The notes beneath the pieces were generated by a model, which was not told the DNA's origin, did not search any database, and was given only the letters and a program-made list of their open reading frames with translations. Position numbers and translations under genes: made by a program. From contig CBDEVU010000018.1 of the NCBI GenBank assembly GCA_965243715.1, positions 18,473-82,472 on the forward strand: a stretch of DNA of 64,000 nucleotides, given 5' to 3'. Source of the stretch: Candidatus Aldehydirespiratoraceae bacterium (GTDB taxonomy: Bacteria; Actinomycetota; Acidimicrobiia; Acidimicrobiales; Aldehydirespiratoraceae). The stretch's first letter is position 1; each line of letters opens with the position of its first letter. Positions 15,792 to 63,323 of the stretch are shown here, piece by piece.

Positions 15792-15796
15792 AACAA

Positions 15797-17023: not shown

Positions 17024-17923
17024 ATGGGAGTTGCGACCACCGACCCAGCGGTACGGCTTGATGTTCAATCGCTGCGCGTCTTTTGCGAACTCGTTGCATC
17101 TGATGGGTTCACCGCCGCCGCCACCCGTCTCGGCGTCACCCAATCGGCGGTCAGTCACAAGATCAAGCGGCTAGAAGAACGCATAGGGGTGGACCTGATT
17201 CGGCGCGACGGCCAATCGTTCGCGGTAACCGCCGACGGTCTCGATCTCCTTGTCCATGCTAAACAGATCGTGAGGGCGCATGACTTGGCCGTGGATTCGC
17301 TTCATCGGTCGCCGCTCGTCGGCACGCTGTGCCTCGGGTGCAACGAGGAAGTCGCGGCGACCCAACTCGCTGAGGTCGCCAGTCGGTTCCGTCGTACTCA
17401 CCCCAACGTCACCTTGGAGATCAAGGTCCACGACTCGGCGTGCGTTGCGGACTGGCTGGAATCCGGCGAGGTCGACCTCGCCCTCCTTCAGGTTCTCGAT
17501 GTCGATGGTGCGGTGCGGTCGAACGATGAAGTGTGGCGGCGTGACGAACTCGTGGTCAGGCAAGGCATGGTGGCTGATTTCGATGAAGCGGAACCCGTCC
17601 CGTTGATTTCGTTTGGTCCGCGGTGTTTGTATGAGCCGTGGCTCGTGAGTGCGCTAGCCGCCGTTGGTCGTTCGTTTCGGACCGTTCTGGAGTGCCCAAG
17701 CATTCAAGGGGTTCAGGCGGCGGTTGAGGCCGGACTGGGGGTGGCGGTCCTAAACACGCCCAACCTCACCAGAGCGATGAGGCCTTGGACCGGTCTGGAG
17801 GCGGTCGAACTCCCGCCGGTGGCGTTCGTACTCCGAGTCGCCCCAAGCAGTGGCCCGCGTCCGCTCGCCGAAGCGCTACGACACCATCTTTCGGTCGCGC
17901 TCGAGAAAAGGAATCCGCCGTGA
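17024..17923 (+). CDS. LysR-family transcriptional regulator
   Basis: N-terminal HTH (LRVFCELVASDGFTAAATRLGVTQSAVSHKIKRLEERIG) plus an LTTR substrate-binding domain. Confidence 0.9.
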   Translation: MGVATTDPAVRLDVQSLRVFCELVASDGFTAAATRLGVTQSAVSHKIKRLEERIGVDLIRRDGQSFAVTADGLDLLVHAKQIVRAHDLAVDSLHRSPLVGTLCLGCNEEVAATQLAEVASRFRRTHPNVTLEIKVHDSACVADWLESGEVDLALLQVLDVDGAVRSNDEVWRRDELVVRQGMVADFDEAEPVPLISFGPRCLYEPWLVSALAAVGRSFRTVLECPSIQGVQAAVEAGLGVAVLNTPNLTRAMRPWTGLEAVELPPVAFVLRVAPSSGPRPLAEALRHHLSVALEKRNPP

Positions 17924-19478
17924 GTACTCCCGCGTCCACCGCCGCGCCTAGGGCCCGCCGAGGGCGGGGTGCTCGCCGGCAAGCCCGTACTGCGTACACC
18001 CAACGCTTTTTGCCCGAACTCGAGAGAGGTTTGCCGTACCTCGACGCCCTACTGCCGGAGCAGGTACAACTCGTCCACGACCACACGATGAGGTTGCTGG
18101 AGACAACGGGAATCGACTTCCGCGACGACGAAGCCATTGAAATGTGGAGCCAAGCTGGTTCTGGCGGGGGAGTGGCTATAGACGGCTACCGCGTCCGCAT
18201 CGACCGCGAACTTCTCATGGGACTCATAGCCACCGTGCCGAGCGAATACACGATGGTTGCCCGAGATTCGGCCCGTACAGTCTCTGTCGGTGGCCGCAAG
18301 AGCATTTTCACTCCTGCCTACGGCGCGCCGTTCGTGCTCGACTTGGAGGGCAGGCGTCGGAACGCGACGCTCGAGGACTTCGACAATTTCGCCAAGATTG
18401 CCCACATGACTCCTGCCATGCAGATGAGCGGAGGTGTGCTGTGCGAGCCGATGGACATTGCGGTCGCCCACCGCCACCTTCGCATGACGTACAGCCTCAT
18501 CAAGCACTCTTCCAAGCCCTTCATGGGCTCTGTCACCTCTCGGGAACGAGCTCAAGACAGCCTCGATATGACCAAGATCGTGTTCGGCGAGGACTTTCTC
18601 GAGGAGAACACGGTCATGACCTGCTTGGCCAACGGTAACTCGCCGCTCGTGTGGGATTCCACGATGCTCGATGCGGTGAAGGTCTACGGGGCAGCTAACC
18701 AGGCCATGCTGTTTTCGCCCTTCGTGCTGGGTGGAGCCTCGACCCCCGCGTCGACGATTGGCTCGGTGGTGCAGATTAACGCCGAAGCGCTGGCCGGCGT
18801 GGCTTTTAGCCAACTAGTGCGGCCCGGAGTTCCCGCCGTGTACGGCCAGTGGCTGGCGACTGTTTCGATGAAAACCGGCGCGCCTATGGCGGGCACCCCA
18901 GAGATCGACCATATGAACCTTCTCGTTGGACAACTGGCCCGTCACTACGAACTCCCCTGGCGTTGTTCGGGATGTGCTCATCGTCGAAGCAGGTGGACGC
19001 ACAGGCGGGCTATGAGGCCGCCCGCAATATGTACGGTGCGGTCCTCGCGGGGGCAAACTTTGTTCTCTCCACCACCGGCTACCTCGAATCGGCGCTGTGT
19101 CAGAGCTATGCCAAAGCAGCCCTCGACGGCGAGCAAGCGGAAATGTTTCGCACGTTTGCCGAGGGCATTAGGTTTGATGAACTCGATGCCGCGCTCGACG
19201 CGATGAACGATGTCGAACCCGGGGGCCACTTCCTTGGCACCGCGCACACGCTGGCCAATTTCGAACGAGCTTTTTCGATGCCTGAGTTGATGGACTGCAA
19301 CGGGTTCGATCAGTGGACGGCGACCGGTGCGCAGGACGCCAACGCCCGTGGGGCTAAGAAGTGCCAGCAACTCCTCGCTGATTACGAAGAACCAACCTTG
19401 CCCGACGACATCGACGAGGCGCTACGTGATTTCGTCGCCCGGCGAATCACCGAGATCCCTGAGACTGGCAATGACTAG
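17920..19478 (+). pseudogene. MttB-superfamily (non-Pyl) quaternary-amine:corrinoid methyltransferase, copy 1, with its reading frame broken by an apparent 1-nt deletion near 18969..18971
   Basis: Two ORFs (17785..19206 and 18849..19478) are collinear with intact paralogs 33198..34760 and 58429..59976. Joining them gives LPWRCSG|MCSSSKQVDAQAGYE versus paralog LPFRSGGQFTASKYPDAQAAYE. GTG start overlaps the lysR stop (GTGA). Confidence 0.75.
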
Positions 19479-19502
19479 CACCCCGCCTCTGCTAAGCGGA
19501 AC

Positions 19503-20471
19503 GTGTGTGTGGCGCTGTCCTCGCCCTTTGACGATAGCGGCGAAACGCTTGACGAGGGTCGCTTGGGAGACCACATCGAGAGCATGATCGACGCTGGGGT
19601 CCACGCTTTGGTGCTGTGTGCGGGTACCGGTGAGTTTGCTTTTCTCTCGGAGCCAGAGAAGCGACGCATCATTGGACTGGGTTGTGAGATTGTCGCTGGC
19701 CGCATCCCCGTTGTCGCCCAAACCTCGGCCATCACCACGCGAGACGCCATCGAACGCACCCGCGAAGCCGCTGACCTCGGCGCCGCGGCCGCCATGGTGT
19801 TGCCCCCCTACTTCGAAGGTCCACTTGAGAGGGGTGTGCTCTACCACTACGAGAAACTGGCCAAAGCGACCGACATCCCAATCGTGCTCTACAATATACC
19901 GGCCAGTAGCGGATTTGACATTCACCCCGACCTTTACCGGCGGCTCATAGCGCTGGAAAACATCGAGTACATCAAAGATTCGACCGGCGACCTCGTCCGC
20001 CTACAGAAGTTGATCGCCATTGGCGGACACGTGCTCGCGGGCACTGATCCGTTGGCTCCTTACGCGGCGATGGCGGGCGCCGCGGGGTGGATCTGGGGGG
20101 CGGCGAACGTGATGCCCCACGAATGTGTGCAGCTGTGGAATCTCATACAGGCGGGCGAACATGGGGCGGCGCTGGAGCTGTGGGCCAAAATGCGGCCCGC
20201 CAATATGTTCTTTTGGGAGAACAACGTGGAGGCGGAATACAACTCGGCGGTCAAGACGGCAACCAACATGGTTGGCCGTCGCGTTGGCCCGTGCCGTCGT
20301 CCGGTGATGCCAATGACCCGTCAGGGCCGAGTGGCGCTCCAGACAGCCCTTTCCCCGCTGCCGATCAACGGAGTCGCTCGCGACACATTGGTGTTTCGTG
20401 AGTGGGATGACGAACGCGATTGGCTGGTTCAGATGACTCATCAAGCGGGCGTGAGCCGAGCGAAAGGCTGA
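19503..20471 (+). CDS. DHDPS/N-acetylneuraminate-lyase-family Schiff-base enzyme (possible pyrroline-4-hydroxy-2-carboxylate deaminase-like)
   Basis: GTGEFAFLSEPEKRRII, YNIP, and the active-site Lys context IEYIKDSTGD. Confidence 0.75.
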   Translation: MCVALSSPFDDSGETLDEGRLGDHIESMIDAGVHALVLCAGTGEFAFLSEPEKRRIIGLGCEIVAGRIPVVAQTSAITTRDAIERTREAADLGAAAAMVLPPYFEGPLERGVLYHYEKLAKATDIPIVLYNIPASSGFDIHPDLYRRLIALENIEYIKDSTGDLVRLQKLIAIGGHVLAGTDPLAPYAAMAGAAGWIWGAANVMPHECVQLWNLIQAGEHGAALELWAKMRPANMFFWENNVEAEYNSAVKTATNMVGRRVGPCRRPVMPMTRQGRVALQTALSPLPINGVARDTLVFREWDDERDWLVQMTHQAGVSRAKG

Positions 20472-20473
20472 CC

Positions 20474-21967
20474 ATGAACCTCACCTTTGACCCCGTAGCA
20501 CTGGCCGCATCGGTTACTCCGCCGACCCGGATGATGATCGGCGGCCGCTCCGTCGAAGCACTCTCGGGGTCTACTTTCGCCACCTTCAATCCGGCCACCG
20601 GTGTCGAACTGGCCCAAGTGTCGCAAGGTTCGGCGGCTGACATGGACCGAGCCGTCGCGGCGGCCCGTGATGCGTTCGACAACGGGCCGTGGGGACGCCT
20701 CTCACCCGCCGACCGGCGGGGCTTGCTGAAACGCTTCGCGCTCATGGTGGAGGCCCACGCTGACGAACTCGCCGTCATCGAGTCGCTCGAAGCGGGTAAG
20801 CCCATCTACGACACGTCGACCATCGACCTGCCCGAGACAGTCAACTGTTTGATGTGGCACGCCGAGTTGGCCGACAAGATCTACGACCAAGTGACGCCGT
20901 CGGGTCTCGGTGTTGTAGGGCTAGTGGTGCGAGAGTCGATCGGTGTCGTCGGTGCGGTGCTGCCGTGGAACTATCCGCTAATGATGGCGGCCTGGAAGAT
21001 CGGTCCCGCTCTCGCCGCTGGCAACACCATGGTGCTAAAACCGGCCGAGCAGACTTCGCTGTCGACAATCCGCATGGTCGAACTAGCCACCGATGCCGGT
21101 ATTCCCGACGGTGTGCTCAACGTGGTCCCAGGGTACGGCGAAACGGTTGGCCAGGCGCTGGGCCGCCACCACAGCGTTGATTGTGTGGGATTCACCGGAT
21201 CGACCGAGGTAGGCCGTAAGTTTCTGCGCTACTCCGCGGACTCTAACCTCAAGCGGGTGTTGCTGGAGTGCGGCGGCAAATCCCCGATGGTTGTCATGTC
21301 CGATGCGGAGGATCTGGACAAGGTCGCGGCGCACGCTTGTGAGTCGATTTTTTGGAACGCGGGCCAGAACTGTAGCTCCAATTCGCGGCTGATCCTGCAC
21401 GAATCGGTCGCCGCAGATGTCATGGCTCGCATCGACGAAGCGATACACGGTTGGGTGCTGGGTGATCCCCTTGATCCCGCAACTCGTATGGGGGCCATTA
21501 TCGAACCCGCCCATCTTGACAAGATCATGGGCGCCATCGAGAGGGCTAAGGCCGAGGGGGCTACTGTGCGTTGCGGTGGAAATCGCACTCGTCGGGAGTC
21601 GGGGGGTTGGTTTGTTGAGCCCACCATCTTTGAAGCCGTCACCGCCGACATGGCGATCGCCCAAGAAGAGGTCTTTGGGCCGGTGTTGTCCGTCTCGACC
21701 TTCACCCACGCCGATGAGGCAATAGCGATGGCTAACGACACGCCTTACGGCCTGCATGCCTCGGTGTTCACGAGCAATGTGCGCTCGGCTCATCTCGCTA
21801 GTCAACGGATCAAGGCGGGCACGGTATCGGTGAACTGTTACAGCGAGGGCGACATGACTACCCCGTTTGGAGGTTACGGACTCAGCGGGTTCAGCGGCCG
21901 AGATAACGGGGTACACGCCCACGAGCAATACACCGAGACCAAGACCATCTGGATCGACTTGGCATGA
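20474..21967 (+). CDS. NAD(P)-dependent aldehyde dehydrogenase
   Basis: FTGSTEVGRK, LECGGKSP, NAGQNCSSNSR, PFGGYGLSGFSGRD. ATG lies 3 nt after the upstream stop. Confidence 0.9.
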   Translation: MNLTFDPVALAASVTPPTRMMIGGRSVEALSGSTFATFNPATGVELAQVSQGSAADMDRAVAAARDAFDNGPWGRLSPADRRGLLKRFALMVEAHADELAVIESLEAGKPIYDTSTIDLPETVNCLMWHAELADKIYDQVTPSGLGVVGLVVRESIGVVGAVLPWNYPLMMAAWKIGPALAAGNTMVLKPAEQTSLSTIRMVELATDAGIPDGVLNVVPGYGETVGQALGRHHSVDCVGFTGSTEVGRKFLRYSADSNLKRVLLECGGKSPMVVMSDAEDLDKVAAHACESIFWNAGQNCSSNSRLILHESVAADVMARIDEAIHGWVLGDPLDPATRMGAIIEPAHLDKIMGAIERAKAEGATVRCGGNRTRRESGGWFVEPTIFEAVTADMAIAQEEVFGPVLSVSTFTHADEAIAMANDTPYGLHASVFTSNVRSAHLASQRIKAGTVSVNCYSEGDMTTPFGGYGLSGFSGRDNGVHAHEQYTETKTIWIDLA

Positions 21968-21977
21968 AGGGCCGACC

Positions 21978-23294
21978 GTGACCCGAGTAACGATTCGTCC
22001 CGACAACGATCGCCAGAACGGCTGGTACGAGACCATTGGACCGCACCCCGAACCCAAGGTGCTGGAGGGCGATACTGACGCCGACTATGTCGTCATCGGA
22101 GCTGGTTTTGGTGGACTGGCAGCCGCTCGTCGCCTAGCTGAACTCAACACTGGGGCATCGATTGTGTTACTGGAAGGCGACCGAATTGGCAACAACGCGG
22201 CGGGTCGTTGTTCGGGCTTCATCATCGATCATGCCCACAACATTAGAGCCAAGAACTTCGCCGACGACCGAAGTAACGCCAAGCGCCGGATTGCGTTGAA
22301 CCGAGCGGGTCTCGACTGGCTCGACGAGATAGTTCATCGCGAGGGGATCGACTGCGACTGGCGTCGGACGGGCAAGATTCATGCAGCCGCGTCGGACAAG
22401 GGAGTGGCCCTGCTCGACCGCTTTGCCGCCTCCCTCGAAGCAGTCGACGAGGACTACTCGATGCACGACGCCGACGAACTAGAGGCCATGTTTGGTACTG
22501 GGTTCTATAAGCGGGGTCTTCACGCCCCGCATTCGGTAGTAGTGCAACCGGCTCAACTCACGATCGGTTTGGCCCAAACCATGCCCGAGAACGTTGCCGT
22601 CTACGAAACATCGATGGTTACCGACTTCGACTTTGGTCCGCCGTCCACGGTCCGTACTGCTCGAGGGTCGGTCCGTTCGCCGTCTCTCGTGATCGCCGCG
22701 AACGGCTTCGGCGAAGGGTTCGGATTATACAAGAATCGACTCCTGCCTTTGATCACCTGGGGCTCGATGACTCGGCCTATGGGGAACGATGAGGTGGCGG
22801 CGCTGGGCGGTGACGACAATTACGCCATTATTCCCGCCCATCCGGCGGGCACAACCGTGCGCCGTCGCGCCGACCGGCGGATCCTCATCCGCAATCAGTA
22901 CACGTATAGTCGCCGCTCCGATGTCAAAAAGGGTTTGGCCGCCGTTCGTCGGATTCACGAGAGGTCGCTGCGCCGTCGGTATCCGATGCTCCCGAATCTG
23001 GAGTTTGAGTATTCGTGGGGCGGGGCCCTTAGCTTGAGCCGCAACGGCGCGGGCGTGTGCGGCCAAGTCGCCCCTGGCGTCTACTCGACTATGGTCTACC
23101 AAGGGGTTGGTATGGCTCAGGGTACGATTTCGGGCAAGTACCTTGCCGAACACATGATGGGTGAAACTAATCCGGCCATGAGTTTGCTCGCCGGATCGGT
23201 GGCCCCCAGCCGAAACTTTCCCGATCCGTTCAACGCTTGGGGGGTACGCCTGAGTGTTTGCGGGCGGCGGTGGCAAGCGGGAATAGAGGAGTGA
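21978..23294 (+). CDS. FAD-dependent oxidoreductase (DAO family)
   Basis: Dinucleotide fold DYVVIGAGFGGLAAARRLAE near the N-terminus. GTG at 21978 follows the ALDH stop. Confidence 0.75.
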   Translation: MTRVTIRPDNDRQNGWYETIGPHPEPKVLEGDTDADYVVIGAGFGGLAAARRLAELNTGASIVLLEGDRIGNNAAGRCSGFIIDHAHNIRAKNFADDRSNAKRRIALNRAGLDWLDEIVHREGIDCDWRRTGKIHAAASDKGVALLDRFAASLEAVDEDYSMHDADELEAMFGTGFYKRGLHAPHSVVVQPAQLTIGLAQTMPENVAVYETSMVTDFDFGPPSTVRTARGSVRSPSLVIAANGFGEGFGLYKNRLLPLITWGSMTRPMGNDEVAALGGDDNYAIIPAHPAGTTVRRRADRRILIRNQYTYSRRSDVKKGLAAVRRIHERSLRRRYPMLPNLEFEYSWGGALSLSRNGAGVCGQVAPGVYSTMVYQGVGMAQGTISGKYLAEHMMGETNPAMSLLAGSVAPSRNFPDPFNAWGVRLSVCGRRWQAGIEE

Positions 23295-23296
23295 CC

Positions 23297-24073
23297 ATGG
23301 CTGATTGGCGGGTGGATCTGCGGGGCAAGGTGGCGGTGGTGTCGGGCGGATCGTCGGGCATGGGGGCCGCGATCTGCGAACGACTCGCCGCTTGTGGCGC
23401 GTCCGTGGTGGTCGGGGGACGAGACGTTGATCGCGCTGCGGCCGTGGTGGCTACCATCACCGCCGCGGGCGGCCAGGCAGTGGCCGAAATCGGCAACATC
23501 GCCAACTCTGCTGTCGCGGATGCGCTAATTGCCGCGGGTGTGGACGGCTTTGGCGGGGTCGACATCGTGGTGAACGCCGCGGGGGTGATCTTTCGCGCTG
23601 ATGCACTTGGTACCGCCGACGATGTCTGGCGCCGGGTGATGGCCACCAATGTTGACGGCACTTTCTTTCTTTCGCGTGCCGCGGTGGGCGCGCTACGGCA
23701 GCGAGGTGGGGGATCGATTATCAATATCAGTTCCACCTGTGGCCTAGTCGGCGCGGCGGGTATCACCGCGTACTGTGCATCGAAGGGCGCGGTCACCAAC
23801 CTCACCAGAGCCATGGCCCTCGACCACGCCGCCGAAGGCATTCGTATTAACGCGATCTGTCCAGGTTCGGTTGACACTCCCATGCTTATCTCCGAACAAC
23901 CCGACGGCACTACACGAGAGGAGGTGATGGCTAGCCATCTGCTTTCGATCCCCGAGCGCCGGATACCAGCCCCCGGGGAGGTAGCCGAGTTGGTCCTCTT
24001 CTTGTGTTCTTCGGCCAGTCGGCACATCAACGGGGCCAACCTTTCCCTCGACGGGGGCTATACCGCCCAATGA
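23297..24073 (+). CDS. SDR-family oxidoreductase
   Basis: VSGGSSGMG, NAAG, and a YCASKGAV catalytic motif. Confidence 0.85.
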   Translation: MADWRVDLRGKVAVVSGGSSGMGAAICERLAACGASVVVGGRDVDRAAAVVATITAAGGQAVAEIGNIANSAVADALIAAGVDGFGGVDIVVNAAGVIFRADALGTADDVWRRVMATNVDGTFFLSRAAVGALRQRGGGSIINISSTCGLVGAAGITAYCASKGAVTNLTRAMALDHAAEGIRINAICPGSVDTPMLISEQPDGTTREEVMASHLLSIPERRIPAPGEVAELVLFLCSSASRHINGANLSLDGGYTAQ

Positions 24074-24831
24074 CGGATTTCTCTGGTATCACCGCTGTTG
24101 TCACCGGTGGCGCCCAAGGGATTGGTCGAGCGATCGCTGATCGCTTGGCGGCCGATGGGGCCGAAGTAGTTGTTGGCGATCTTCGTGATCCAGGAGATCT
24201 TGGCCCGCGACAACGCTGGGTTGAACTTGACGTCCGTGTCGAGGCATCGGTTGCGGCGCTGGCCGCGGCGTGTGACGGCGCTGTCGGCGTGCTGGTGAAC
24301 AACGCAGGCATAATGTTCGAAGCGTCGATCACGGAACAAACCGTTGAACAATGGGACCTCGCGATGGCCGTCAACCTCCGCGGACCTTGGCTGGTGACCA
24401 AAGCTCTCTTGGCCCGCCTCACGGCTGCGCCGGGCTCGGCGGTGGTCAACGTTGGCTCCATCGAAGGCATCGGCTCCAACCCCCACCACACTGCCTATTC
24501 GGCCTCGAAGGGGGGTGTACACGGACTTACCGTGGCGATGGCCGTAGATCTGGGCCCGCTGGGCGTTCGCTGCAACGCGGTGGCACCCGGCTGGATCGAC
24601 ACGGCTCTAAACCGAGACTATATCGACCGACTCCCCCACCGCGATCAGGCCCTAGCCGAATTGGCCGTGCTCCATCCGGTTGGCCATATCGGCGACCCTG
24701 CCGATGTGGCCTCGACGGTGGCATTTCTCGCGTCGCTGGACGCTCGCTTCGTGTCCGGGCAGGTCGTGGTGGTGGATGGCGGGCGGACGAGCAAACTTAG
24801 CCTCCCAGCGTCGCTCACTCCTGATAGCTAA
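24070..24831 (+). CDS. SDR-family oxidoreductase
   Basis: VTGGAQGIG, NNAG, YSASKGGV. ATGA overlap with the preceding SDR. Confidence 0.85.
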   Translation: MTDFSGITAVVTGGAQGIGRAIADRLAADGAEVVVGDLRDPGDLGPRQRWVELDVRVEASVAALAAACDGAVGVLVNNAGIMFEASITEQTVEQWDLAMAVNLRGPWLVTKALLARLTAAPGSAVVNVGSIEGIGSNPHHTAYSASKGGVHGLTVAMAVDLGPLGVRCNAVAPGWIDTALNRDYIDRLPHRDQALAELAVLHPVGHIGDPADVASTVAFLASLDARFVSGQVVVVDGGRTSKLSLPASLTPDS

Positions 24832-27544: not shown

Positions 27545-27574
27545 ACCTCGTCGTAGGCAAAGGAGCATCCTCTC

Positions 27575-29646: not shown

Positions 29647-29647
29647 C

Positions 29648-32421: not shown

Positions 32422-33201
32422 ATGTCCCACGTGCAAGCCGTCGATCGAGCGCTGCTCCTACTTAGCGAAATAGGCCGAGAGTCTGGCGGATTGGTCGACC
32501 TCGCGAGCCGTGTCGATTTGGCCACGAGCACAGCGGCTCGGCTGTTGAATACCCTGGAGTCGGCAGGTGCCGTTCGCCGCAGCGACGACGCGAGCTACGA
32601 GATCGGTCCGCTGATCCAGTCCCTGACCGCCGCGCCCGAAGGTAGCCAGCGCCTAGAGCAACTAGTTCATCCCCACCTCGTCGAACTATCTACTCAACTT
32701 GATGAAGCGGCGTGCCTTGCTTTGATCTCTGGTGACGAAACCGTCACCGTCGATCAGGTTGACGCCCCCAAGCCGGTCCAGGCCGAGAACTGGACGGGAA
32801 CCCGCGTCCCCCTTCACGCTGGGGGAGCGGGTCTGGTCGCCATGGCAACCTGGGACGACGTGGAGGTCGAGCGCTACCTAAGCGGCGAACTCGTGGCGTG
32901 CTCTGCCCTCACTGTCACCGACCCGGCAAAGCACCGGTGCCGCCTCGAGGAGATCCGTCGCACCGGCGTGTGTTGGACGCACGGCGAATACGTCGAAGGT
33001 CTATCCTCGCTGTCGGCGGCCATCCAAGATGTGTCGGGTCGAGCGGTGGCCGTGCTCTACACCTACGGGCCGAGCTATCGCTATCCCGCGCCCGGGTCGG
33101 CCGAAAAGGTGGCTCGCACCGTCTGGGCCCGTGCTGAACGCATCTCCATCCAACTGGGCTGGACGGGTTCGCTTACACCAGTGCGAAACGAGGCTTCGTG
33201 A
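32422..33201 (+). CDS. IclR-family transcriptional regulator
   Basis: N-terminal wHTH (VQAVDRALLLLSEIG...LVDLASRVDLATSTAARLLNTLESAGAVRR) plus an IclR effector domain. Confidence 0.85.
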   Translation: MSHVQAVDRALLLLSEIGRESGGLVDLASRVDLATSTAARLLNTLESAGAVRRSDDASYEIGPLIQSLTAAPEGSQRLEQLVHPHLVELSTQLDEAACLALISGDETVTVDQVDAPKPVQAENWTGTRVPLHAGGAGLVAMATWDDVEVERYLSGELVACSALTVTDPAKHRCRLEEIRRTGVCWTHGEYVEGLSSLSAAIQDVSGRAVAVLYTYGPSYRYPAPGSAEKVARTVWARAERISIQLGWTGSLTPVRNEAS

Positions 33202-34760
33202 CCGAGGTTCGCTCTTCTACCGGCACGGGAACCAAGCGGAAACGTGGTGGGGGTCGTCGCCAACGTCCTGCGGCGCCGGTTGGCCCGCCGCAACGGCCCT
33301 GGCAACTCTACCGCCGCCCGATTGAGGCCACCAAGGTTGTGTCAGAGGATGAACTCGAGAACATTCATCAGACTTCGCTCATCGTGCTGCGCGACATTGG
33401 CCTGGATTTTTTGCATCCCACGGCGCGCAAGATGTGGGCTGAGGCGGGGGCTAAGGTTGACGACGAGCGGGTTCGATTCGATCCCGCCCTCATCGAAGAC
33501 CTCGTTGCTTCGGCGCCGAGCGAGTTCGTGATGTACGGGCCGGATCCTGCCTACGACATTCACGTCGGCGGCGACAGCGTGGTGTTCACCGCCGTGGCCA
33601 GCGCCCCGAACTATGCCGATCGGGCGGGGGGTCGTCGTACTGGTAGTCAGGAGAGCTTTCGCACACTGGTGAAGTTGTGTCATCAACTTCACATCATCCA
33701 GAGCTTGCCTGGTTACCCGGTTGAGCCGATTGATCTCCACCCGTCGATCCGTCACCTTGAAGCTACCCGCGACATGCTGACCCTCACCGGCAAGGCCGTA
33801 CACGCCTACTCCCTGGGGAAGCAGCGCAACCTGGACTGTCTCGAAATGGTGCGGATTCGGCGCGGCCTTAGCGAGGACGAAATCGATACCCATCCCATTG
33901 TGCATTCGGTCGTTAACGTCAGTTCACCGTTGCGACTCGACGGTCCAATGATCGAGGGAATACTGCAGTTTTCGGCTCGTAACCAGCCCATTATTGTCAC
34001 GCCGTTCACCCTGGCGGGAGCAATGGCCCCAGTCACGATTGTAGGAGCCGTCGTACAGCAAAACGCCGAAGCCCTCGCCGGACTTGCCTTTTGCCAACTG
34101 GTTCGCCGCGGCTCGCCGGTGGTGTATGGCGGATTCACTTCCAACGTCGACATGCGCAGCGGGGCGCCCGCGTTTGGGACTCCTGAGTTCATGCAGTCGG
34201 CGATGCTCGGCGGCCAGCTAGCGCGGCGCTATAACTTGCCGTATCGCAGTTCTAACGTGTGTACTGCCAACACCATCGATGCCCAAGCGGGCTACGAGAG
34301 TGTGTTTTCGCTCTGGGGCGCGATCATGGGCGGGGCCAACATAGTTCTCCATGGTGCGGGCTGGATGGAAGGCGGACTGCAGGCCAGTCCGGAAAAGATG
34401 GTGATTGACGCCGACCTGCTCCAGATGGTGGCGACCTTCTTGCAACCGCTCATCGTCGACGACGCAACTATGGCGGTCGAAGCAATCGTCGACGTCGGCC
34501 CCGGCGGGCACTTCTTTGGCACCCAGCACACCCAGGATCGTTACCGAGACGCCTTCTACCGTCCCATGATCTCTGACTGGCGAAATTATGAAAGCTGGGA
34601 AGAAGCGGGTAGTCCAACGGCTTACGACCACGCCGAACGGGTCGCCCGAGACCTGCTCTCCACCTACGAACCACCACCCATAGACACCGCGGTGCGGGCC
34701 GAACTTGACGATTTCGTCGAGCGGCGAATCGCCGAGGGCGGTGTCGACACCGACTTTTAG
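33198..34760 (+). CDS. MttB-superfamily (non-Pyl) methyltransferase, copy 2 (intact)
   Basis: 520 aa, collinear with copies 1 and 3. No in-frame TAG. GTG start overlaps the iclR stop (GTGA). Confidence 0.85.
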   Translation: MTEVRSSTGTGTKRKRGGGRRQRPAAPVGPPQRPWQLYRRPIEATKVVSEDELENIHQTSLIVLRDIGLDFLHPTARKMWAEAGAKVDDERVRFDPALIEDLVASAPSEFVMYGPDPAYDIHVGGDSVVFTAVASAPNYADRAGGRRTGSQESFRTLVKLCHQLHIIQSLPGYPVEPIDLHPSIRHLEATRDMLTLTGKAVHAYSLGKQRNLDCLEMVRIRRGLSEDEIDTHPIVHSVVNVSSPLRLDGPMIEGILQFSARNQPIIVTPFTLAGAMAPVTIVGAVVQQNAEALAGLAFCQLVRRGSPVVYGGFTSNVDMRSGAPAFGTPEFMQSAMLGGQLARRYNLPYRSSNVCTANTIDAQAGYESVFSLWGAIMGGANIVLHGAGWMEGGLQASPEKMVIDADLLQMVATFLQPLIVDDATMAVEAIVDVGPGGHFFGTQHTQDRYRDAFYRPMISDWRNYESWEEAGSPTAYDHAERVARDLLSTYEPPPIDTAVRAELDDFVERRIAEGGVDTDF

Positions 34761-34782
34761 GCTGAATCATTTGAGATCAATT

Positions 34783-36051
34783 ATGACGGCAACCGACCGG
34801 CCGGCAACCGACCGGCCGAGAACCGACTGGACGAACAACGATGCTTGGCGCGGTACACGCGCCGACCTGCATAAAGCCACCGGCCTCAATCCCGACTGCT
34901 ACGCGGGGGAGGAGTTCTTTGCCCTCGAACAAGTTCGAGTCTTCGAGCGGGCGTGGGTCATAGTTGGTACCTCCCCAGAGGTCGCAGAACCGGGCCGCCT
35001 GCTCGTGCGTCGGGTGGGGCGCCGTTCGATCCTGATTAGCCGAGACAACGAGGGCGTACTGCGGGGCTTCTACAACACCTGTCGCCACCGAGGGACAGAG
35101 TTAGCCGAAGCCGACTGCGATGTCGCTGGCACAATCCGGTGCCCCTACCACCGCTGGAGCTACGGACTGGACGGCGTGCTGAAAGCTACGCCGCGGTTCG
35201 ATGACGTGCCGCGCCAGGACTTCAACCGGTCGGACTTCTCGCTGCTTGGCGTGCGGGTCGACACTTGGGGACCACTCCTGTTCGCCTGTCTCGATGCCGA
35301 GACCCCGCCGCTGGCGGAATGGCTGGGCGATTTGCCCGAACGAATGGCTGGCTATGGTTTCGAGAGTTGGCGAATCCAAGAAGAAGCCACGGTCGAGATA
35401 GCGGCGAACTGGAAGCTGATCTCGGAGAACTTCCAAGAGTACTATCACCTCACCTGGGTACATCCCGAGTTGGCCAAGATCAGCCGGGTGAAGGATCACT
35501 ATCGTTACCAAGGGCCTGGCATGTACTGCGGCCAGACCACGACCCCGGTGACCGGCGCCGCTGGTGACGCTTGGCTGGTACTACCGGTAGCCGAGGGACT
35601 CGACGAGTCCGATGCCACAAGCGGTCGACACCTCGCCATCTACCCCAACGTCATCTTCTCGGTGTTACCAAACCACGTGTTCGTCATGCGCCTTGAGCCG
35701 ATCGCGCCCGGCCTTACCCGAGAGACCTGTACCTTTTTGCTACCGGCGTCAACCCCACCGGTTACCGCTGACGACATGGCCGCCACCCGTGACTTCTGGA
35801 TAGATATCAACAACGAAGACATCGATATCTGTCAACGAGGCCAACGGGGCCTTACTTACGGCCACATCGAACCCGGCCCGCTGGCCCCCCGCTTCGAACA
35901 ACCCCTCCACCGGTTCCACAACATGCTCGCCGATTGCTTGACCGCCGATTCGCTCCAAACCGGCCTCACTATTCCTGCGGGCGACGACGGTTCTTTAGCA
36001 TCGCGCCTAGGAACGAAAGCAAATCCCTGCCCGCCCCAGATCGAAAAGTAG
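34783..36051 (+). CDS. Rieske 2Fe-2S non-heme-iron oxygenase alpha subunit (GbcA/Stc2/CntA-like N-demethylase candidate)
   Basis: Rieske motif CRHRGTEL...CPYHRWSY. The catalytic domain carries NFQEYYHLTWVHP. Start taken at ATG 34783. Confidence 0.8.
   Translation: MTATDRPATDRPRTDWTNNDAWRGTRADLHKATGLNPDCYAGEEFFALEQVRVFERAWVIVGTSPEVAEPGRLLVRRVGRRSILISRDNEGVLRGFYNTCRHRGTELAEADCDVAGTIRCPYHRWSYGLDGVLKATPRFDDVPRQDFNRSDFSLLGVRVDTWGPLLFACLDAETPPLAEWLGDLPERMAGYGFESWRIQEEATVEIAANWKLISENFQEYYHLTWVHPELAKISRVKDHYRYQGPGMYCGQTTTPVTGAAGDAWLVLPVAEGLDESDATSGRHLAIYPNVIFSVLPNHVFVMRLEPIAPGLTRETCTFLLPASTPPVTADDMAATRDFWIDINNEDIDICQRGQRGLTYGHIEPGPLAPRFEQPLHRFHNMLADCLTADSLQTGLTIPAGDDGSLASRLGTKANPCPPQIEK
34788..34830. 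repeat. 15-bp tandem repeat (GGCAACCGACCGGCC x2 plus a degenerate third unit) encoding ATDRP-ATDRP-RTD at codons 3-16 of the Rieske gene
   Basis: Read directly. Confidence 0.85.
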
Positions 36052-36063
36052 AAGGTAGTCCTA

Positions 36064-38619
36064 ATGAGTCCCGCGATGAAAACCAGTGTTCCGGTCGTGG
36101 TCATCGGCGGGGGTGTGGTCGGCGCTTCGGTTCTGTACCACTTAACTAAAAAGGGTTGGACCGATGTCGTCCTTCTTGAACGAACCGAGTACACCGCCGG
36201 TTCCACTTGGCATTCCGCGGGCGGAATGCATACCCTTAACGGTGATCCGAATGTAGCAAAACTTCAGCAGTACACGATCGACCTGTACAAGGAGATCTTG
36301 GAAGAGTCTGGCCTTGACGCCTCGATGCATCTCACCGGCGGTGTGATGCTGGCCGACACCGCCGAGCGTATGGATTGGCTGAAAATGAGCCACGCTCGGG
36401 GGCGTTATCTCGGGATGGAAACAGAATTGCTCTCCGCCGCCGAGGCCAAGGAGTTGGTACCGATCATCGACGAGCAGTACTTCGTGGGAGCCATGTGGGA
36501 CGCCAACGAAGGTCACCTCGATCCCAGCCAGATCACCCACGCTTACCTCGAGTGCGCTCGCCTGCGAGGGGCTCAAACCCATCGCCACTCGTGGGTCCGT
36601 GACATCACCCGCGCGGCGGACGGCGGATGGAACCTCACCGTTTACGACACCAACTCCAATGAGGACCAAGCCCTTGTCCACTGCGAGCACGTGGTCAACG
36701 CAGGGGGCCTATGGGCTCGTGAAGTCGGCCGCATGGTTGGCCTCGAACTCCCGCTACTCGCCATGGAGCACATGTACCTGCTAACCGAGGAGATCCCCGA
36801 GGTGGCGGAACTCACCCGGCGAGAAGGCAAGGAACTCATGCACGTCATCGACTTCGGTGGTGAGATCTATATGCGCCAAGAAGGCAACGGCTTGCTTCTC
36901 GGGACCTATGAGCGGGGCGGTAAGCCGTGGTCACCCAAAGTGACCTCGTGGGAGTTCGGCGCCCGTCTGCTGACCCCCGACATCGAACGCATCGCCGAGT
37001 CCCTCGACATCGGCTTCAAGCACTTCCCCGTCTTTGCTGAAGCCGGTATCAAAAAGGTCATCAACGGTCCCTTCACGTTCGCTCCCGACGGCAATCCGCT
37101 GTTGGGTCCGGTGCGGGGCCTGCCCGGCTACTGGTCGGCTTGCGCGGTTATGGCGGGGATCTCGCAGGGAGGTGGCGTCGGCCTAAGCCTCGCCAACTGG
37201 ATCACCGAAGGCGATCCCGGTTTCGATATTTGGGGGATGGATATTGCCCGTTACGGCGATTACTCCACCATGGCCTACACGAACGAAAAGGTGCGCGAGA
37301 ACTACTCACGGCGTTTCCAGATCACCTTCCCGAATGAGTTCTTGCCCCAGGCTCGCAACGTTCAGACATCACCAATATTTGATCTCTTAACGGCCAAGAA
37401 TGCGGTTTTTGGAGCAAGTTTTGGCCTAGAAGCGGCGCTGTGGTTCCAAGCCGAAGGCGAAGAACCGGTAGAGGAGGTCACCTTCGGCCGATCGAATGGC
37501 TGGGACCAGGTCCGCGCCGAGACCCTAGCCGTTCGTTCGAGCGTCGGCCTGTGGGAGACTACGGGCTTTTCTAAGTTCCGGTTCTCCGGGCCTGGAGCCC
37601 GGGCCTATCTTGATCGACTGCTGGCCGGTCGAATCCCGAACCCCGGTCGCCTGGCGCTCACCCCCATGACCAACGAGCGGGGCAACCTTATTGGTGACCT
37701 CACCGTCGCCACTCTGCCGGGCGCGGAAGGCGAAGCCGAAGGACCAGAACGCACCATCACTGGCGGGGCGACCGGCAACACTAGGGCCACGGAGGAGTTC
37801 GTGCTTTTCGGTTCGGGGATCGCCGAGCGGTACTACGAGCGTTGGTTTGATCAGCACCTTCTCGATGACAACTCGGTGCGTTACGACACGCTTGGTTTCG
37901 AGATGTGCGGGTTGTCCATCGCCGGACCCAACAGTCGGGCGCTGCTCGAAAAGGTCACCGATGCTGATGTCAGCCAAAACGGTATGCGGTTCATGTCCTT
38001 CCAGGAGATCACGATCGGCCTAGCGCCGGTGTGGTGCGGGCGGGTGACGTTCACCGGCGATCTGGGTTATGAGTTCTGGATGCCGGCCCGCTATCAGCGC
38101 TACGTCTATCAGACCTTGCTCGATGCGGGAGAGGAGTTCGACCTCGCCGTGTTCGGGCTTCATGCCCTTAACTCGTTACGCTTGGAGAAGAGTTTTGGCT
38201 CGTGGGCTCGAGAGTACCGACCGATCTATGACCCGTTCGAGGCCAACCTCGGTCGCTTTGTTCAGCTAGGCAAGGACTTCATCGGCCGCGACGCCCTCGC
38301 GGCGAAGTACGCCGAGGACGGCCCAGGCGCCACCCACCAACTCATCACGCTCATCGTCGACAGCGAACCCGGGCGGGCCGGGGTCGACGTGATCGGCGAC
38401 GAACCAATCTGGCGCAACGACGAAGTCGTTGGCTGGGTAACGTCGGGCGGTTTCGCCCACCACAGCAACGTCTCGGTAGCCCTCGGCTACATAGCGACAA
38501 TCCTAGCCCCAGCGGCCCGGGAGGCAGCTTTTGCGGTGGAGGTCTTGGGGGAGCGTCGGGCGGCGACGCTGGTGGAGGACTGTATTTGGGATAACCACGG
38601 CGAACGCATGCGGAGCTAG
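36064..38619 (+). CDS. Dimethylglycine/sarcosine dehydrogenase-like enzyme: FAD oxidoreductase fused to a GcvT-type tetrahydrofolate-binding domain
   Basis: 851 aa. VVVIGGGVVGASVLYHL, AGSTWHSAGGMH (covalent-FAD His context), and a C-terminal aminomethyltransferase fold (GDLGYEFWMP...). Confidence 0.8.
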   Translation: MSPAMKTSVPVVVIGGGVVGASVLYHLTKKGWTDVVLLERTEYTAGSTWHSAGGMHTLNGDPNVAKLQQYTIDLYKEILEESGLDASMHLTGGVMLADTAERMDWLKMSHARGRYLGMETELLSAAEAKELVPIIDEQYFVGAMWDANEGHLDPSQITHAYLECARLRGAQTHRHSWVRDITRAADGGWNLTVYDTNSNEDQALVHCEHVVNAGGLWAREVGRMVGLELPLLAMEHMYLLTEEIPEVAELTRREGKELMHVIDFGGEIYMRQEGNGLLLGTYERGGKPWSPKVTSWEFGARLLTPDIERIAESLDIGFKHFPVFAEAGIKKVINGPFTFAPDGNPLLGPVRGLPGYWSACAVMAGISQGGGVGLSLANWITEGDPGFDIWGMDIARYGDYSTMAYTNEKVRENYSRRFQITFPNEFLPQARNVQTSPIFDLLTAKNAVFGASFGLEAALWFQAEGEEPVEEVTFGRSNGWDQVRAETLAVRSSVGLWETTGFSKFRFSGPGARAYLDRLLAGRIPNPGRLALTPMTNERGNLIGDLTVATLPGAEGEAEGPERTITGGATGNTRATEEFVLFGSGIAERYYERWFDQHLLDDNSVRYDTLGFEMCGLSIAGPNSRALLEKVTDADVSQNGMRFMSFQEITIGLAPVWCGRVTFTGDLGYEFWMPARYQRYVYQTLLDAGEEFDLAVFGLHALNSLRLEKSFGSWAREYRPIYDPFEANLGRFVQLGKDFIGRDALAAKYAEDGPGATHQLITLIVDSEPGRAGVDVIGDEPIWRNDEVVGWVTSGGFAHHSNVSVALGYIATILAPAAREAAFAVEVLGERRAATLVEDCIWDNHGERMRS

Positions 38620-38625
38620 ACGAAG

Positions 38626-39933
38626 ATGCCGAACCGAATCCGACGATCCGTTCAAGAGGCCCTCGACGGCACTCCCGAAGTAGCCCACGCAGCCGGGGCC
38701 GGACACCATCTAGCCATAGGACCGGGCGAAGCCCTCACCGCGGAGTGGATTGCGTCGGGGTTGGAGTTGCCCAACCTCCCCGCCATGCGTCAGTACCGCG
38801 TCGACCGCACCGTTGAGCAACTCGAGCGGTTGGATTACGGTGGCATCATCCTCTTTGACCCGCTCAATGTGCGCTACGTAACCGACTCCACCAACATGCA
38901 ACTCTGGGCCATGCACAACGGTGCTCGCTATGCGTTCGTGAGTGCGGATGGCCACGTTATTTTGTGGGAGTACGAGCACTGCGAGTTCCTGTCGGGCCAT
39001 AGCCATGTCATCAACGAGGTGCGAACCGCTATCGGGTCAACATTTTTTCTCGGCGGCAACCGGTACGCGGAGCAGGCCAAGCGGTGGGCTGACGAAATGA
39101 TCGCCGTCGTTACCGAGCATTGCGGGGCCGGTGCTCGAATCGCGGTGGACCAGTGCCACCTTATTGGGTATCACGCGCTCGAGGGTGCCGGTTTCACCCT
39201 TGGCGAAGGCGGCGAGGTTATGGAGTTGGCACGTCGACTCAAGTCCGTGGATGAGATCAAGGCTATGAAGTGCGTCGCTCATAGCTGTCAGGCGTCGATA
39301 TCTGAGATGCATGAAGAGCTTCGTCCGGGGATGACCGAGCGCGATGTTTGGGCCATCTTGCACGCTGGCAACATCAAGCGGGCGGGGGAATGGATTGAGA
39401 CCCAGATCCTGTCGAGCGGTCCTCGAACCAACCCTTGGATGCAGGAGGCCAGTGCGCGGGTTATCGAAAAAGGCGACATTGTGGCCTACGACACCGACCT
39501 AGTCGGGGCTTACGGAATGATGATCGACATGAGCCGCACTTGGGTAGTCGACGCCCAACCCACTCGCCATCAGCAGACCCTGTTTGACATGGCCAAGGAG
39601 ATGGTCGCCGGAAACGCCGAACTCCTCACCCCTGGGCGCACATTTCGCGAGCTCAGTTTTAACGCCTTTTTGCCCGACGTGGAGCAATACCGTCACTATT
39701 CGGTGCTGTACCACGGAGTCGGTCAGTGCGATGAGTACCCGACTATCTATATGCCCGAAGCCTGGGATGCTTGGGGTCACGACGGTGTGCTAGAAGCTGG
39801 GATGGTCCTTACCTCCGAGAGCTACATTGGTTCACGCAACGGTGGTGAAGGAGTGAAGCTAGAGGATCAGTATCTCATCACCGACGACGGACCAGAGTTG
39901 CTAAGCGATTACCCGGTGACGCTCAAGATCTGA
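38626..39933 (+). CDS. M24-family metallopeptidase-fold protein, DddP-like (DMSP lyase candidate) or creatinase-like
   Basis: Pita-bread metal ligands (DTDLVGAYGMMID, YHGVGQCDE, TSESYIG, KLEDQ). GEWIETQILSSGPRTNPWMQE resembles my recollection of DddP. Confidence 0.55.
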   Translation: MPNRIRRSVQEALDGTPEVAHAAGAGHHLAIGPGEALTAEWIASGLELPNLPAMRQYRVDRTVEQLERLDYGGIILFDPLNVRYVTDSTNMQLWAMHNGARYAFVSADGHVILWEYEHCEFLSGHSHVINEVRTAIGSTFFLGGNRYAEQAKRWADEMIAVVTEHCGAGARIAVDQCHLIGYHALEGAGFTLGEGGEVMELARRLKSVDEIKAMKCVAHSCQASISEMHEELRPGMTERDVWAILHAGNIKRAGEWIETQILSSGPRTNPWMQEASARVIEKGDIVAYDTDLVGAYGMMIDMSRTWVVDAQPTRHQQTLFDMAKEMVAGNAELLTPGRTFRELSFNAFLPDVEQYRHYSVLYHGVGQCDEYPTIYMPEAWDAWGHDGVLEAGMVLTSESYIGSRNGGEGVKLEDQYLITDDGPELLSDYPVTLKI

Positions 39934-47093: not shown

Positions 47094-47225
47094 TCGTTTC
47101 CCCTCCTGGGAATAGTGATGCCGAGTGGCATGCGCCACGCGACGATTAGAGATCATAGTGGATTATTGGTAATGGCGCGTCGTTGGCACAGATTTACCGG
47201 ACGGCAGCCGCCGTGACATACCTTC

Positions 47226-62048: not shown

Positions 62049-62072
62049 TAGCTGACGTTAGGCTGTGTGGCG

Positions 62073-62976: not shown

Positions 62977-63323
62977 TGGGCTTCTCCTGGCTGTTCAGGG
63001 TCGAGACCACCGGCGGCGACAAGCGCCTCCAAGCGGTCTCGGGGATAAGTTGATTCGAGGATTTCGGCTGTCTGGCGAGCGACGGCGATGGGATCACCGT
63101 CAACGGAGGTCGCCACACGACGCCACTCGTTGACGTAGGCGTCGGCATCGGTCAGGCCCGCCACGGCGGCGGCTCGGTCGATGGCAACCTGGAACCGTTG
63201 ATGCAAAAGCACCGGTTCTTTGGCGCCTTGTCCGCCGGTGGCGGTGACCTGGGCCGGAATGTCACGCCAAAAGATCGTGATCAAGCCCGGTCCGCCCCGA
63301 CCGCGGCGTCGGTTGGTGGTCAT
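62973..63323 (-). CDS. Small 'virulence factor'-family protein (Pfam Virulence_fact, PF13769 as I recall), function unknown
   Basis: 116 aa. IFWRDIPAQV motif after an RG-rich N-terminus. 4-nt overlaps with both neighbours. Confidence 0.55.
   Translation of the reverse strand: MTTNRRRGRGGPGLITIFWRDIPAQVTATGGQGAKEPVLLHQRFQVAIDRAAAVAGLTDADAYVNEWRRVATSVDGDPIAVARQTAEILESTYPRDRLEALVAAGGLDPEQPGEAQ

Follow-up and report, generated by a model that had tools for sequence, protein, structure and literature searches.

Gene content of the mttB copy 1 operon

We analysed a 64,000-nucleotide stretch of DNA (referred to as the window; positions 18,473 to 82,472 of contig CBDEVU010000018.1) from a Candidatus Aldehydirespiratoraceae bacterium, with a G+C content of approximately 62% and with metagenome-assembled genomes (MAGs) of marine Acidimicrobiia as its relatives. 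The window carries three copies of mttB, and a first-pass annotation had suggested that the operon containing copy 1 feeds a (hydroxy)proline betaine, through an MttB-type demethylase, into a hydroxyproline-type lower pathway. Pfam searches confirmed the gene families and coordinates of this operon, and the sequence itself its tight spacing. It consists of the following genes:

17024..17923, + strand: LysR-family regulator (Pfam HTH_1 and LysR_substrate), co-oriented with mttB copy 1
17920..19478, + strand: MttB-superfamily methyltransferase copy 1, non-pyrrolysine (Pfam MTTB, in two pieces)
19471..20471, + strand: dihydrodipicolinate synthase (DHDPS)-family Schiff-base enzyme, candidate pyrroline-4-hydroxy-2-carboxylate dehydratase/deaminase (Pfam DHDPS, 188 bits)
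20474..21967, + strand: PuuC-like aldehyde dehydrogenase (ALDH), candidate alpha-ketoglutarate semialdehyde dehydrogenase (KGSADH) (Pfam Aldedh, 551 bits)
21978..23294, + strand: FAD enzyme of an uncharacterised DAO subfamily, candidate (N-methyl)hydroxyproline dehydrogenase (Pfam DAO, 151 bits)
23297..24073, + strand: short-chain dehydrogenase/reductase (SDR) 1 (Pfam adh_short)
24070..24831, + strand: SDR 2 (Pfam adh_short), with a 4-nt overlap with SDR 1

The stop codon of the LysR gene and the GTG start codon of mttB copy 1 overlap (GTGA). The GTG start of the DHDPS gene follows mttB by 24 nt, and the next gaps measure 2 nt (DHDPS-ALDH), 10 nt (ALDH-DAO) and 2 nt (DAO-SDR 1). A scan for promoters and terminators inside the operon gave no signal above chance and was uninformative.

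Intact alleles in near-identical assemblies

Analysis of mttB copy 1 revealed that its reading frame is broken in the window. The two pieces of the MTTB match lie in different frames, with 17920-18971 covering profile positions 2-336 (417 bits) and 18972-19478 covering positions 340-500 (189 bits). Comparison with three further assemblies of the same species, L002 (99.2-99.5% identical to the window), L097 (99.77%) and L098 (99.25%), located a 1-nt deletion, with GGG at 18968-18970 in the window and GGGG in the other three, in which the gene is intact at 515-519 aa. The intact allele of L097 (4625-6184) encodes 519 aa without an internal stop. A second indel lies at the start of the DHDPS gene, which in L097 and L098 encodes 332 aa from an ATG overlapping the mttB stop codon (window position 19471); an extra AA at 19500-19501 throws this ATG out of frame in the window and leaves the GTG at 19503 as the first in-frame start. 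The third is a 1-nt insertion at approximately 62294 (62294-62295) in the gene for a pterin-binding methyltransferase.

These indels would be real if the operon were decaying in this strain, the mutations in mttB, the DHDPS start and the pterin methyltransferase gene leaving the pathway non-functional here. All three hit methyl-transfer or hydroxyproline-type genes when measured against the near-identical strains, and simple slippage in a homopolymer does not account for the AA insertion. On the other hand, all of the genes are intact in the three other assemblies of the species, and the near-identical assemblies give 3 frameshifts against 41 substitutions in approximately 29.5 kb. Since such a ratio is implausible for real evolution and typical of consensus indel errors, the three indels are more likely to be assembly (consensus) errors than real inactivation, and we regard decay as rather unlikely. 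One assembly, L002, also carries an insertion of approximately 400 nt between mttB and the DHDPS gene (9592-10009), which holds a 119-aa putative membrane open reading frame (ORF), appears by eye to be lower in G+C, and has no counterpart in the window, L097 or L098.

Conservation of the cassette in marine Acidimicrobiia

The six-gene order MttB-DHDPS-ALDH-DAO-SDR-SDR is kept, amid unrelated flanks, in the marine Acidimicrobiia contigs L001, L003-L006 and L015-L017. The recurrence of one gene order amid different flanks shows that these genes have not come together by chance. The order LysR-MttB is also kept in L001 and L015-L017. In L001, the cassette is followed directly by genes for an IclR regulator, a second MttB, a Rieske oxygenase and a dimethylglycine dehydrogenase (DMGDH)-like protein; in the window, a DM13-domain gene, a LysR gene and an mcl-mtkAB-ppc block part the cassette from the corresponding mttB copy 2 operon. 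This block (26591-32347) is of the serine-cycle type, sits between the two mttB operons and is absent from L001. It encodes a malyl-CoA-lyase-like HpcH/CitE protein, a malate-CoA ligase (MtkA, above the NCBIfam cut-off, and MtkB) and a phosphoenolpyruvate (PEP) carboxylase.

Comparison of the trio with characterised enzymes

The DHDPS, ALDH and DAO proteins (hereafter the trio) were compared with enzymes of known function. For the DHDPS protein, the best NCBIfam model is DapA (TIGR00674), at 180.7 bits and below the cut-off of 206.15. Relative to Escherichia coli DapA it keeps K161 and Y133, and carries T44 to G, Y107 to F and R138 to S replacements. A true DapA or a sugar-acid aldolase was considered and rejected on the cut-off, the loss of T44, Y107 and R138, and the catabolic context. 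The protein is 31% identical to Sinorhizobium meliloti HypD over 230 aa (62 bits) and 30% identical over 200 aa to the DHDPS protein linked to 4-hydroxyproline epimerase (4HypE) in Ketogulonicigenium vulgare, values that place it outside the HypD lineage.

The ALDH is PuuC/KauB-like. Its best NCBIfam model is PuuC (532 bits, cut-off 850), and its scores against the curated KGSADH models, GucD (349 bits, cut-off 770) and DioxValDh (343 bits, cut-off 750), lie below their cut-offs, so that the expected grouping with KGSADH was not found. It is 28% identical to the enzyme in the hypH position of S. meliloti. For the DAO protein, BLAST gave no match at E<=1e-5 to the 4HypE-adjacent FAD enzyme of K. 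vulgare or to the ORFs of the S. meliloti hypO region, and a tblastn search with HypO-type queries found no match in the window. A single-sequence search of the PDB also gave no match at E<=1e-5, and a profile search of the PDB returned just distant matches to glycine oxidase and L-amino-acid deaminase. The NCBIfam matches of this protein are weak and include L-pipecolate oxidase. The similarity of the trio to LhpB-, LhpC- and LhpG-type enzymes that had been anticipated was thus not borne out (62 bits to HypD, 28% identity at the HypH position and no match for HypO).

Occurrence of the trio beside hydroxyproline epimerase genes

All three window proteins are similar over their full length to a trio encoded in clusters of Rhizobium johnstonii, Paracoccus versutus, Cereibacter sphaeroides and Mesorhizobium. 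The ALDH is 53-57% identical to the ALDHs of 4HypE- and HpbD-linked clusters (HpbD being hydroxyproline-betaine 2-epimerase), and the DAO protein matches the FAD enzymes of reference clusters at 31-40% identity along its entire length, with 31-34% for the clusters of the four taxa just named. The DHDPS protein is 38-44% identical to the DAO/ALDH-adjacent DHDPS proteins of P. versutus, Agrobacterium, Leisingera and Mesorhizobium NZP2077, and 28-29% identical to the type found in R. johnstonii and C. sphaeroides. On plasmid pRL12 of R. johnstonii, the trio (in the order DHDPS-ALDH-FAD enzyme) adjoins a Rieske pair, genes for a betaine ABC transporter and a gene that the Prokaryotic Genome Annotation Pipeline (PGAP) names 4-hydroxyproline epimerase; in P. 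versutus, it lies beside an epimerase gene whose product is 74% identical to that of R. johnstonii. Between these two clusters and the window, identities are 53-55% for the ALDH, 33-34% for the DAO protein and 29-40% for the DHDPS protein. Relatives of the trio also adjoin 4HypE in Pseudaminobacter (L062).

Loci were further collected with a DAO-family profile, taking one genome per species and the genes within 10 kb of the DAO gene, which yielded 80 loci. A DHDPS gene was present in 52 of the 80, and DHDPS together with ALDH in 46; MttB, Rieske oxygenase and OpuAC-type transporter genes were present in 22/80, 16/80 and 25/80 loci, respectively. DHDPS genes of the HypD type occurred within 10 kb of DAO at none of the 80 loci. 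The commonest accessory gene of the DAO family encodes a pyrroline-5-carboxylate (P5C) reductase-like protein, and its recurrence points to cyclic imine chemistry. The DAO, DHDPS and ALDH proteins make up a second enzyme set for the lower part of the hydroxyproline pathway, defined by context and not orthologous to the canonical one. The first-pass assignment of the trio to a hydroxyproline-type lower pathway is upheld in so far as the trio adjoins 4HypE and HpbD elsewhere, and fails in so far as the proteins are not of the canonical families.

Some members of the DAO family occur in other settings. In the Pseudomonas loci L036-L044 and L063, DAO-family genes without DHDPS stand directly ahead of a P5C-reductase-like gene, with a GlxA regulator nearby; such a pair may interconvert D- and L-imino acids. 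A locus on an Azospirillum plasmid has a proline-racemase-family gene without the trio.

The link to HpbD was seen in several Proteobacteria. In Mesorhizobium L088, L072 and L090, a gene of the mandelate racemase/muconate lactonizing enzyme (MR/MLE) type directly follows the trio-linked mttB, and L073 also carries one. The best PDB match of the L088 MR/MLE protein is P. denitrificans HpbD (4e8g/4izg/4j1o, 472 bits). PDB 4mgg is presumably the cis-3-hydroxyproline dehydratase of Labrenzia. On plasmid pB of C. sphaeroides 2.4.1 (L099, 13920-25775), an MttB-enolase-SDR-SDR run is accompanied by FAD enzyme-ALDH-DHDPS-GntR genes on the other strand and by a ProX ABC transporter. The enolase scores 671 bits against P. 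denitrificans HpbD, and gene counting from hpbJIH (RSP_3998-4000) identified it as RSP_4007, which is the R. sphaeroides HpbD (rsHpbD). The kcat/Km of rsHpbD is 4,300 M-1 s-1 on trans-4-hydroxyproline betaine (tHyp-B), its best substrate, and 170-390 on proline betaine (Kumar et al., PMC3950512). Identities between the pB cluster and the window are 50% for MttB, 57% for the ALDH, 32% for the DAO protein, 28% for the DHDPS protein, and 40% and 49% for the SDRs, which occur in the same order in both (SDR 1 40% identical to SDRa and SDR 2 49% identical to SDRb).

Mesorhizobium NZP2077 combines an MttB that is 63% identical to copy 1 with ProX, the trio, an SDR pair and genes for an M24 protein, an MLE and two members of the proline racemase family, and here SDR 1 and SDR 2 are 47% and 51% identical to SDRy and SDRx, respectively. 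In Phaeobacter inhibens, an SDR-SDR-MttB run adjoins the trio and ProX. The Aminobacter locus lacks the trio; there, MttB is accompanied by genes for a B12 protein, MLE, a FAD enzyme of 660 aa and a P5C-reductase-like protein. An apparent mutual exclusion of the SDR pair and HpbD at the DAO-anchored loci had suggested the pair as a substitute for HpbD; this idea was dropped, both being present on C. sphaeroides pB.

The MttB clade and the corrinoid machinery

MttB copy 1 belongs to the MttB superfamily (PF06253) and is of the non-pyrrolysine type, with a full-length match to the MTTB profile and no in-frame UAG in the intact allele. In a neighbour-joining (NJ) tree, all of the trio-linked MttBs, those of Acidimicrobiia and those of Proteobacteria, fall into a single clade, and copies 2 and 3 and the glycine betaine methyltransferase MtgB lie outside it. 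At the positions of MtgB Y97/R312/H348/F356, copy 1 has Y-R-S-A: the carboxylate-binding Arg and the Tyr are kept, as in characterised members of the superfamily, and Ser and Ala replace His and Phe. All three window copies and 25/25 aligned trio-linked MttBs have the Arg; in MtgB, R312 binds the carboxylate of acidic quaternary amines (PMC13080624). The MtgB motif as a whole is absent from copy 1, and an identity of copy 1 with the glycine-betaine MtgB was rejected on the pocket motif and the NJ tree. Among the window copies, the glycine-betaine motif is best approximated by MttB copy 3 (Y-R-H-G).

The methyl-transfer partners are encoded at the far end of the window:

58429..63943, - strand: corrinoid methyl-transfer set comprising MttB copy 3, a RACo-type reductive activase, a pterin-binding methyl-corrinoid:tetrahydrofolate (THF) methyltransferase and DUF1638 (Pfam)

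RACo, Pterin_bind and DUF1638 occupy 59973-63943, and the set (58429-63943) also holds a small ORF of 116 aa. A B12-binding corrinoid protein is encoded directly upstream of DUF1638 in L096 (7315-8004), a contig 99.8% identical to the window, at a place just past the window end. The lineage therefore has a corrinoid protein (from L096), a THF methyltransferase and a reductive activase, and we infer that copy 1 uses these shared corrinoid/THF parts. At L074, the trio, MttB, a corrinoid protein, DUF1638, methylenetetrahydrofolate reductase (MTHFR), a pterin methyltransferase and RACo lie in one run.

A candidate route for a proline-ring betaine

On balance, we favour the reading that the operon represents, in marine Acidimicrobiia, a widely conserved, uncharacterised cobalamin-dependent module that breaks down a proline-ring betaine, the probable substrate being 4-hydroxyproline betaine or a closely related N-methylated compound. 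From the gene context described above we infer the substrate, each of the reactions and the sharing of the corrinoid protein. MttB copy 1 would transfer one N-methyl group from (hydroxy)proline betaine to the corrinoid protein, and the pterin-binding methyltransferase would pass it on to THF, with RACo re-reducing the cofactor and these parts being shared with MttB copy 3. The DAO flavoenzyme would oxidise N-methyl-hydroxyproline at C2 to an imine of the 4-hydroxy-pyrroline-2-carboxylate type; alternatively, its substrate may be hydroxyproline, after a second demethylation by a neighbouring DMGDH-like or Rieske enzyme. The DHDPS-family enzyme would then catalyse dehydration and deamination via a lysine Schiff base, giving alpha-ketoglutarate semialdehyde. 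The ALDH would oxidise the semialdehyde to 2-oxoglutarate. The SDR pair is part of the conserved module, and one guess is that it could invert the 4-hydroxyl through a 4-oxo intermediate.

The candidate source of the second N-demethylation is the operon of mttB copy 2:

32422..39933, + strand: second demethylase operon with IclR, MttB copy 2, Rieske oxygenase alpha, DMGDH-like FAD/GcvT and DddP-like M24 genes (Pfam, NCBIfam)

Several observations weigh against this assignment. By sequence, the DAO, DHDPS and ALDH proteins fall outside the characterised LhpB/HypO, LhpC/HypD and KGSADH families, and their assigned roles therefore rest on gene context. The 64-kb window holds no HpbD, 4HypE or other epimerase, as judged by tblastn with HpbD, MLE and proline-racemase-family queries, so that the epimerase sought after the first-pass annotation did not turn up there. 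The DHDPS protein is of another subfamily than the HpbD-linked ones of C. sphaeroides and Mesorhizobium L072/L088/L090 (28-29% identity); its own subfamily does match the 4HypE-adjacent protein of P. versutus and that of NZP2077. The pocket of copy 1 (Y-R-S-A) differs from that of the proteobacterial trio-linked MttBs (T/A/H-R-H-G), and sampling in the NJ tree was confined to MttBs from near the DAO family. To these are added the frameshift of mttB copy 1 in the window and the SDR pair, which the canonical pathway does not need and which is left unexplained. Lastly, the Rieske enzymes of P. denitrificans are genetically required for growth on proline betaine (PMC3950512), and an MttB route is therefore not needed in that organism. 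The claim that an MttB-type demethylase feeds a hydroxyproline-type DAO/DHDPS/ALDH pathway finds strong support in gene context elsewhere, beside HpbD and 4HypE, and fell short in the literal similarity tests.

The same architecture might serve another ring betaine, such as stachydrine (proline betaine), 3-hydroxyproline betaine, homostachydrine (pipecolate betaine) or N-methyl-hydroxyproline, with the trio and the SDRs processing the corresponding cyclic imine. HpbD enzymes also racemise proline betaine (PMC3950512), a PutA gene lies two genes from the cassette in L003-L006, and the MttB-clade gene of Aminobacter keeps company with MLE, the 660-aa FAD enzyme and the P5C-reductase-like gene without the trio. 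The L-pipecolate oxidase among the weak NCBIfam matches of the DAO protein and the difference between the copy 1 pocket and those of HpbD-linked MttBs would fit as well. Proline betaine, which lacks the hydroxyl, needs no DHDPS-type step, however; the trio adjoins 4HypE in three genomes, and rsHpbD favours tHyp-B more than 10-fold in kcat/Km. A substrate of this kind accordingly appears unlikely.

Still less probable is a hydroxylated quaternary amine that is not derived from proline, for example carnitine or homoserine betaine. In that case, MttB would demethylate the amine, the DAO protein would cleave the C-N bond to give an aldehyde or a 2-oxo acid, the DHDPS protein would serve as a pyruvate aldolase with a 4-hydroxy-2-oxo acid as its substrate, the ALDH would oxidise the aldehyde and the SDRs the hydroxyl. 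PuuC/KauB-like ALDHs typically act on amino- or guanidino-aldehydes, the DHDPS protein retains the Lys/Tyr pair used by aldolases, SDRs suit hydroxyl oxidation, and genes for TauD, a CaiB-type CoA transferase and an acyl-CoA dehydrogenase flank the cassette in L003-L006. These flanks are not kept in L001 or the window, and such a substrate leaves the recurrent HpbD, 4HypE, proline-racemase-family and P5C-reductase-like neighbours unexplained.

Least probable of all is a mammalian-type route, in which the DAO protein acts at C5-N to give 3-hydroxy-P5C, the ALDH forms 4-hydroxyglutamate and, after transamination, the DHDPS protein cleaves 4-hydroxy-2-oxoglutarate to pyruvate and glyoxylate: human HOGA1, itself of the DHDPS family, matches at 88 bits, PGAP gives the proteobacterial homologues a Gene Ontology (GO) term for glyoxylate catabolism, and the malyl-CoA-lyase-like, malate-CoA ligase and PEP carboxylase genes after the operon could take up glyoxylate, but the module has no conserved aminotransferase, L001 and L003-L006 lack the mcl-mtk-ppc block, the aldolase proton relay residues T44 and Y107 are replaced by G and F, and a 2-epimerase (4HypE/HpbD) beside the trio makes sense solely for D-specific oxidation at C2.

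Comparison with known pathways

A module for a proline-ring betaine, as favoured here, has its nearest counterpart in the Hpb pathway of P. denitrificans, Pelagibaca bermudensis and R. (Cereibacter) sphaeroides, which comprises HpbD, the Rieske pair HpbB/C, HpbA, a cis-4-hydroxyproline (cHyp) oxidase, an imino-acid dehydratase/deaminase and an alpha-ketoglutarate semialdehyde (KGSA) dehydrogenase (PMC3950512, PMC4113996). The operon and this pathway have the lower-pathway superfamilies DAO, DHDPS and ALDH in common, relatives of the window ALDH, DAO, SDRs and MttB sit in the cluster of rsHpbD and the hpbJIH transporter, and the copy 2 operon of the window has a Rieske oxygenase and a DMGDH-like demethylase. 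Unlike the Hpb pathway, the operon has as its candidate first demethylase a corrinoid-dependent MttB instead of a Rieske oxygenase; the window lacks HpbD, the module includes an SDR pair, and the DHDPS protein is of another subfamily than that of C. sphaeroides. The canonical trans-4-hydroxy-L-proline pathway (LhpA-G in Pseudomonas/Azospirillum; HypRE/HypO/HypD/HypH in S. meliloti) likewise uses a FAD dehydrogenase, a DHDPS-type deaminase and an ALDH to reach 2-oxoglutarate, whereas its DHDPS, ALDH and DAO enzymes are of different lineages.

Copy 1 shares PF06253 and the lack of pyrrolysine with MtpB of the proline betaine:THF system MtpB-MtqC-MtqA of Eubacterium limosum, and with MtgB, MtcB, MtyB and MthB. 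As in the MtpB system, the partners available are a corrinoid protein, a reductive activase and a methyltransferase of the pterin-binding type; the likeness to MtpB is one of fold and family. In contrast to that system, the host is an aerobic marine actinobacterium, and copy 1 shares its operon with an oxidative lower pathway that would consume the demethylated product in place of its excretion. The MtgBCD glycine betaine demethylase system of Ruegeria pomeroyi resembles the present one in setting, being that of an aerobic marine heterotroph with several pfam06253 paralogues and one corrinoid/THF module (PMC12478193). Copy 1 lies in a separate clade from MtgB and lacks the glycine-betaine motif, and its neighbours point to a ring betaine instead of glycine betaine. 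The study of that system demonstrated that aerobic marine bacteria demethylate glycine betaine in a cobalamin-dependent manner, and expressly left the further pfam06253 paralogues without an assigned substrate (PMC12478193).

Searches of the literature for MttB together with dihydrodipicolinate or hydroxyproline found no description of the combination, in agreement with the first-pass statement that it is undescribed, and found no mention of RSP_4008, RSP_4004 or RSP_4002. The mBio paper that describes the R. sphaeroides cluster mentions no methyltransferase, corrinoid or SDRs, and the neighbours of rsHpbD, an MttB-family gene and two SDRs, go unmentioned in its main text. The combination is widespread and not peculiar to this genome.

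Other genes in the window

Analysis of the remaining genes identified a betaine transporter:

45837..50569, - strand: ProX/OpuAC-type betaine ABC transporter with binding protein, permease and ATPase (Pfam OpuAC, BPD_transp_1, ABC_tran)

Its binding protein scores 211 bits against the NCBIfam ProX model (cut-off 215). The permease (47226-49352, - strand) is unusually long at 708 aa, and residues 133-290 alone match BPD_transp_1. The M24 protein of the copy 2 operon (38626-39933) reaches 448 bits against the model of the dimethylsulfoniopropionate (DMSP) lyase DddP (cut-off 600), and a GcvT-family protein (55001-56152), with 290 bits, stays below the DmdA cut-off of 410. The window has the look of a catabolic island for methylated osmolytes.

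Directly upstream of the copy 1 operon (15276-16912) lie genes for a SET-domain protein and a DUF222/HNH endonuclease, a type common in Actinobacteria. Directly after the operon, the DM13-domain protein (24875-25561) contains an acidic EAMSE-type repeat (25054-25071). It is 222-233 aa long across strains, with length changes in whole 18-nt units.

Implications

More tentatively than the reading of the operon as a module for a proline-ring betaine, we propose that the MttB clade of copy 1 may be the hydroxyproline-betaine (perhaps proline-betaine):corrinoid methyltransferase of aerobes, an oxygen-independent alternative to the Rieske enzyme HpbBC. Together with a dedicated SDR pair and the second, non-canonical oxidase/deaminase/ALDH set, it would make up a complete B12-dependent route, in which the other N-methyl group may be lost as methylamine at the deaminase step, and cobalamin would then be required for the use of plant- or alga-derived proline betaines. 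The substrates of MttB paralogues are an open question both in gut anaerobes and in aerobic marine bacteria, which have up to seven paralogues (PMC12155760, PMC12478193). The present analysis offers a concrete, testable substrate class for one MttB clade that spans Actinomycetota and Alpha- and Gammaproteobacteria, and brings to light a second set of hydroxyproline lower-pathway enzymes that is not orthologous to the canonical one. Tractable hosts in which these genes flank a characterised epimerase include C. sphaeroides 2.4.1, Phaeobacter inhibens and Mesorhizobium. If the proposal is true, a cobalamin requirement would hold for roseobacters, rhizobia and the abundant marine Acidimicrobiia, and also for the strain that served as the model for HpbD, and would tie the availability of vitamin B12 to how proline-type osmolytes are turned over in the sea and in the rhizosphere.

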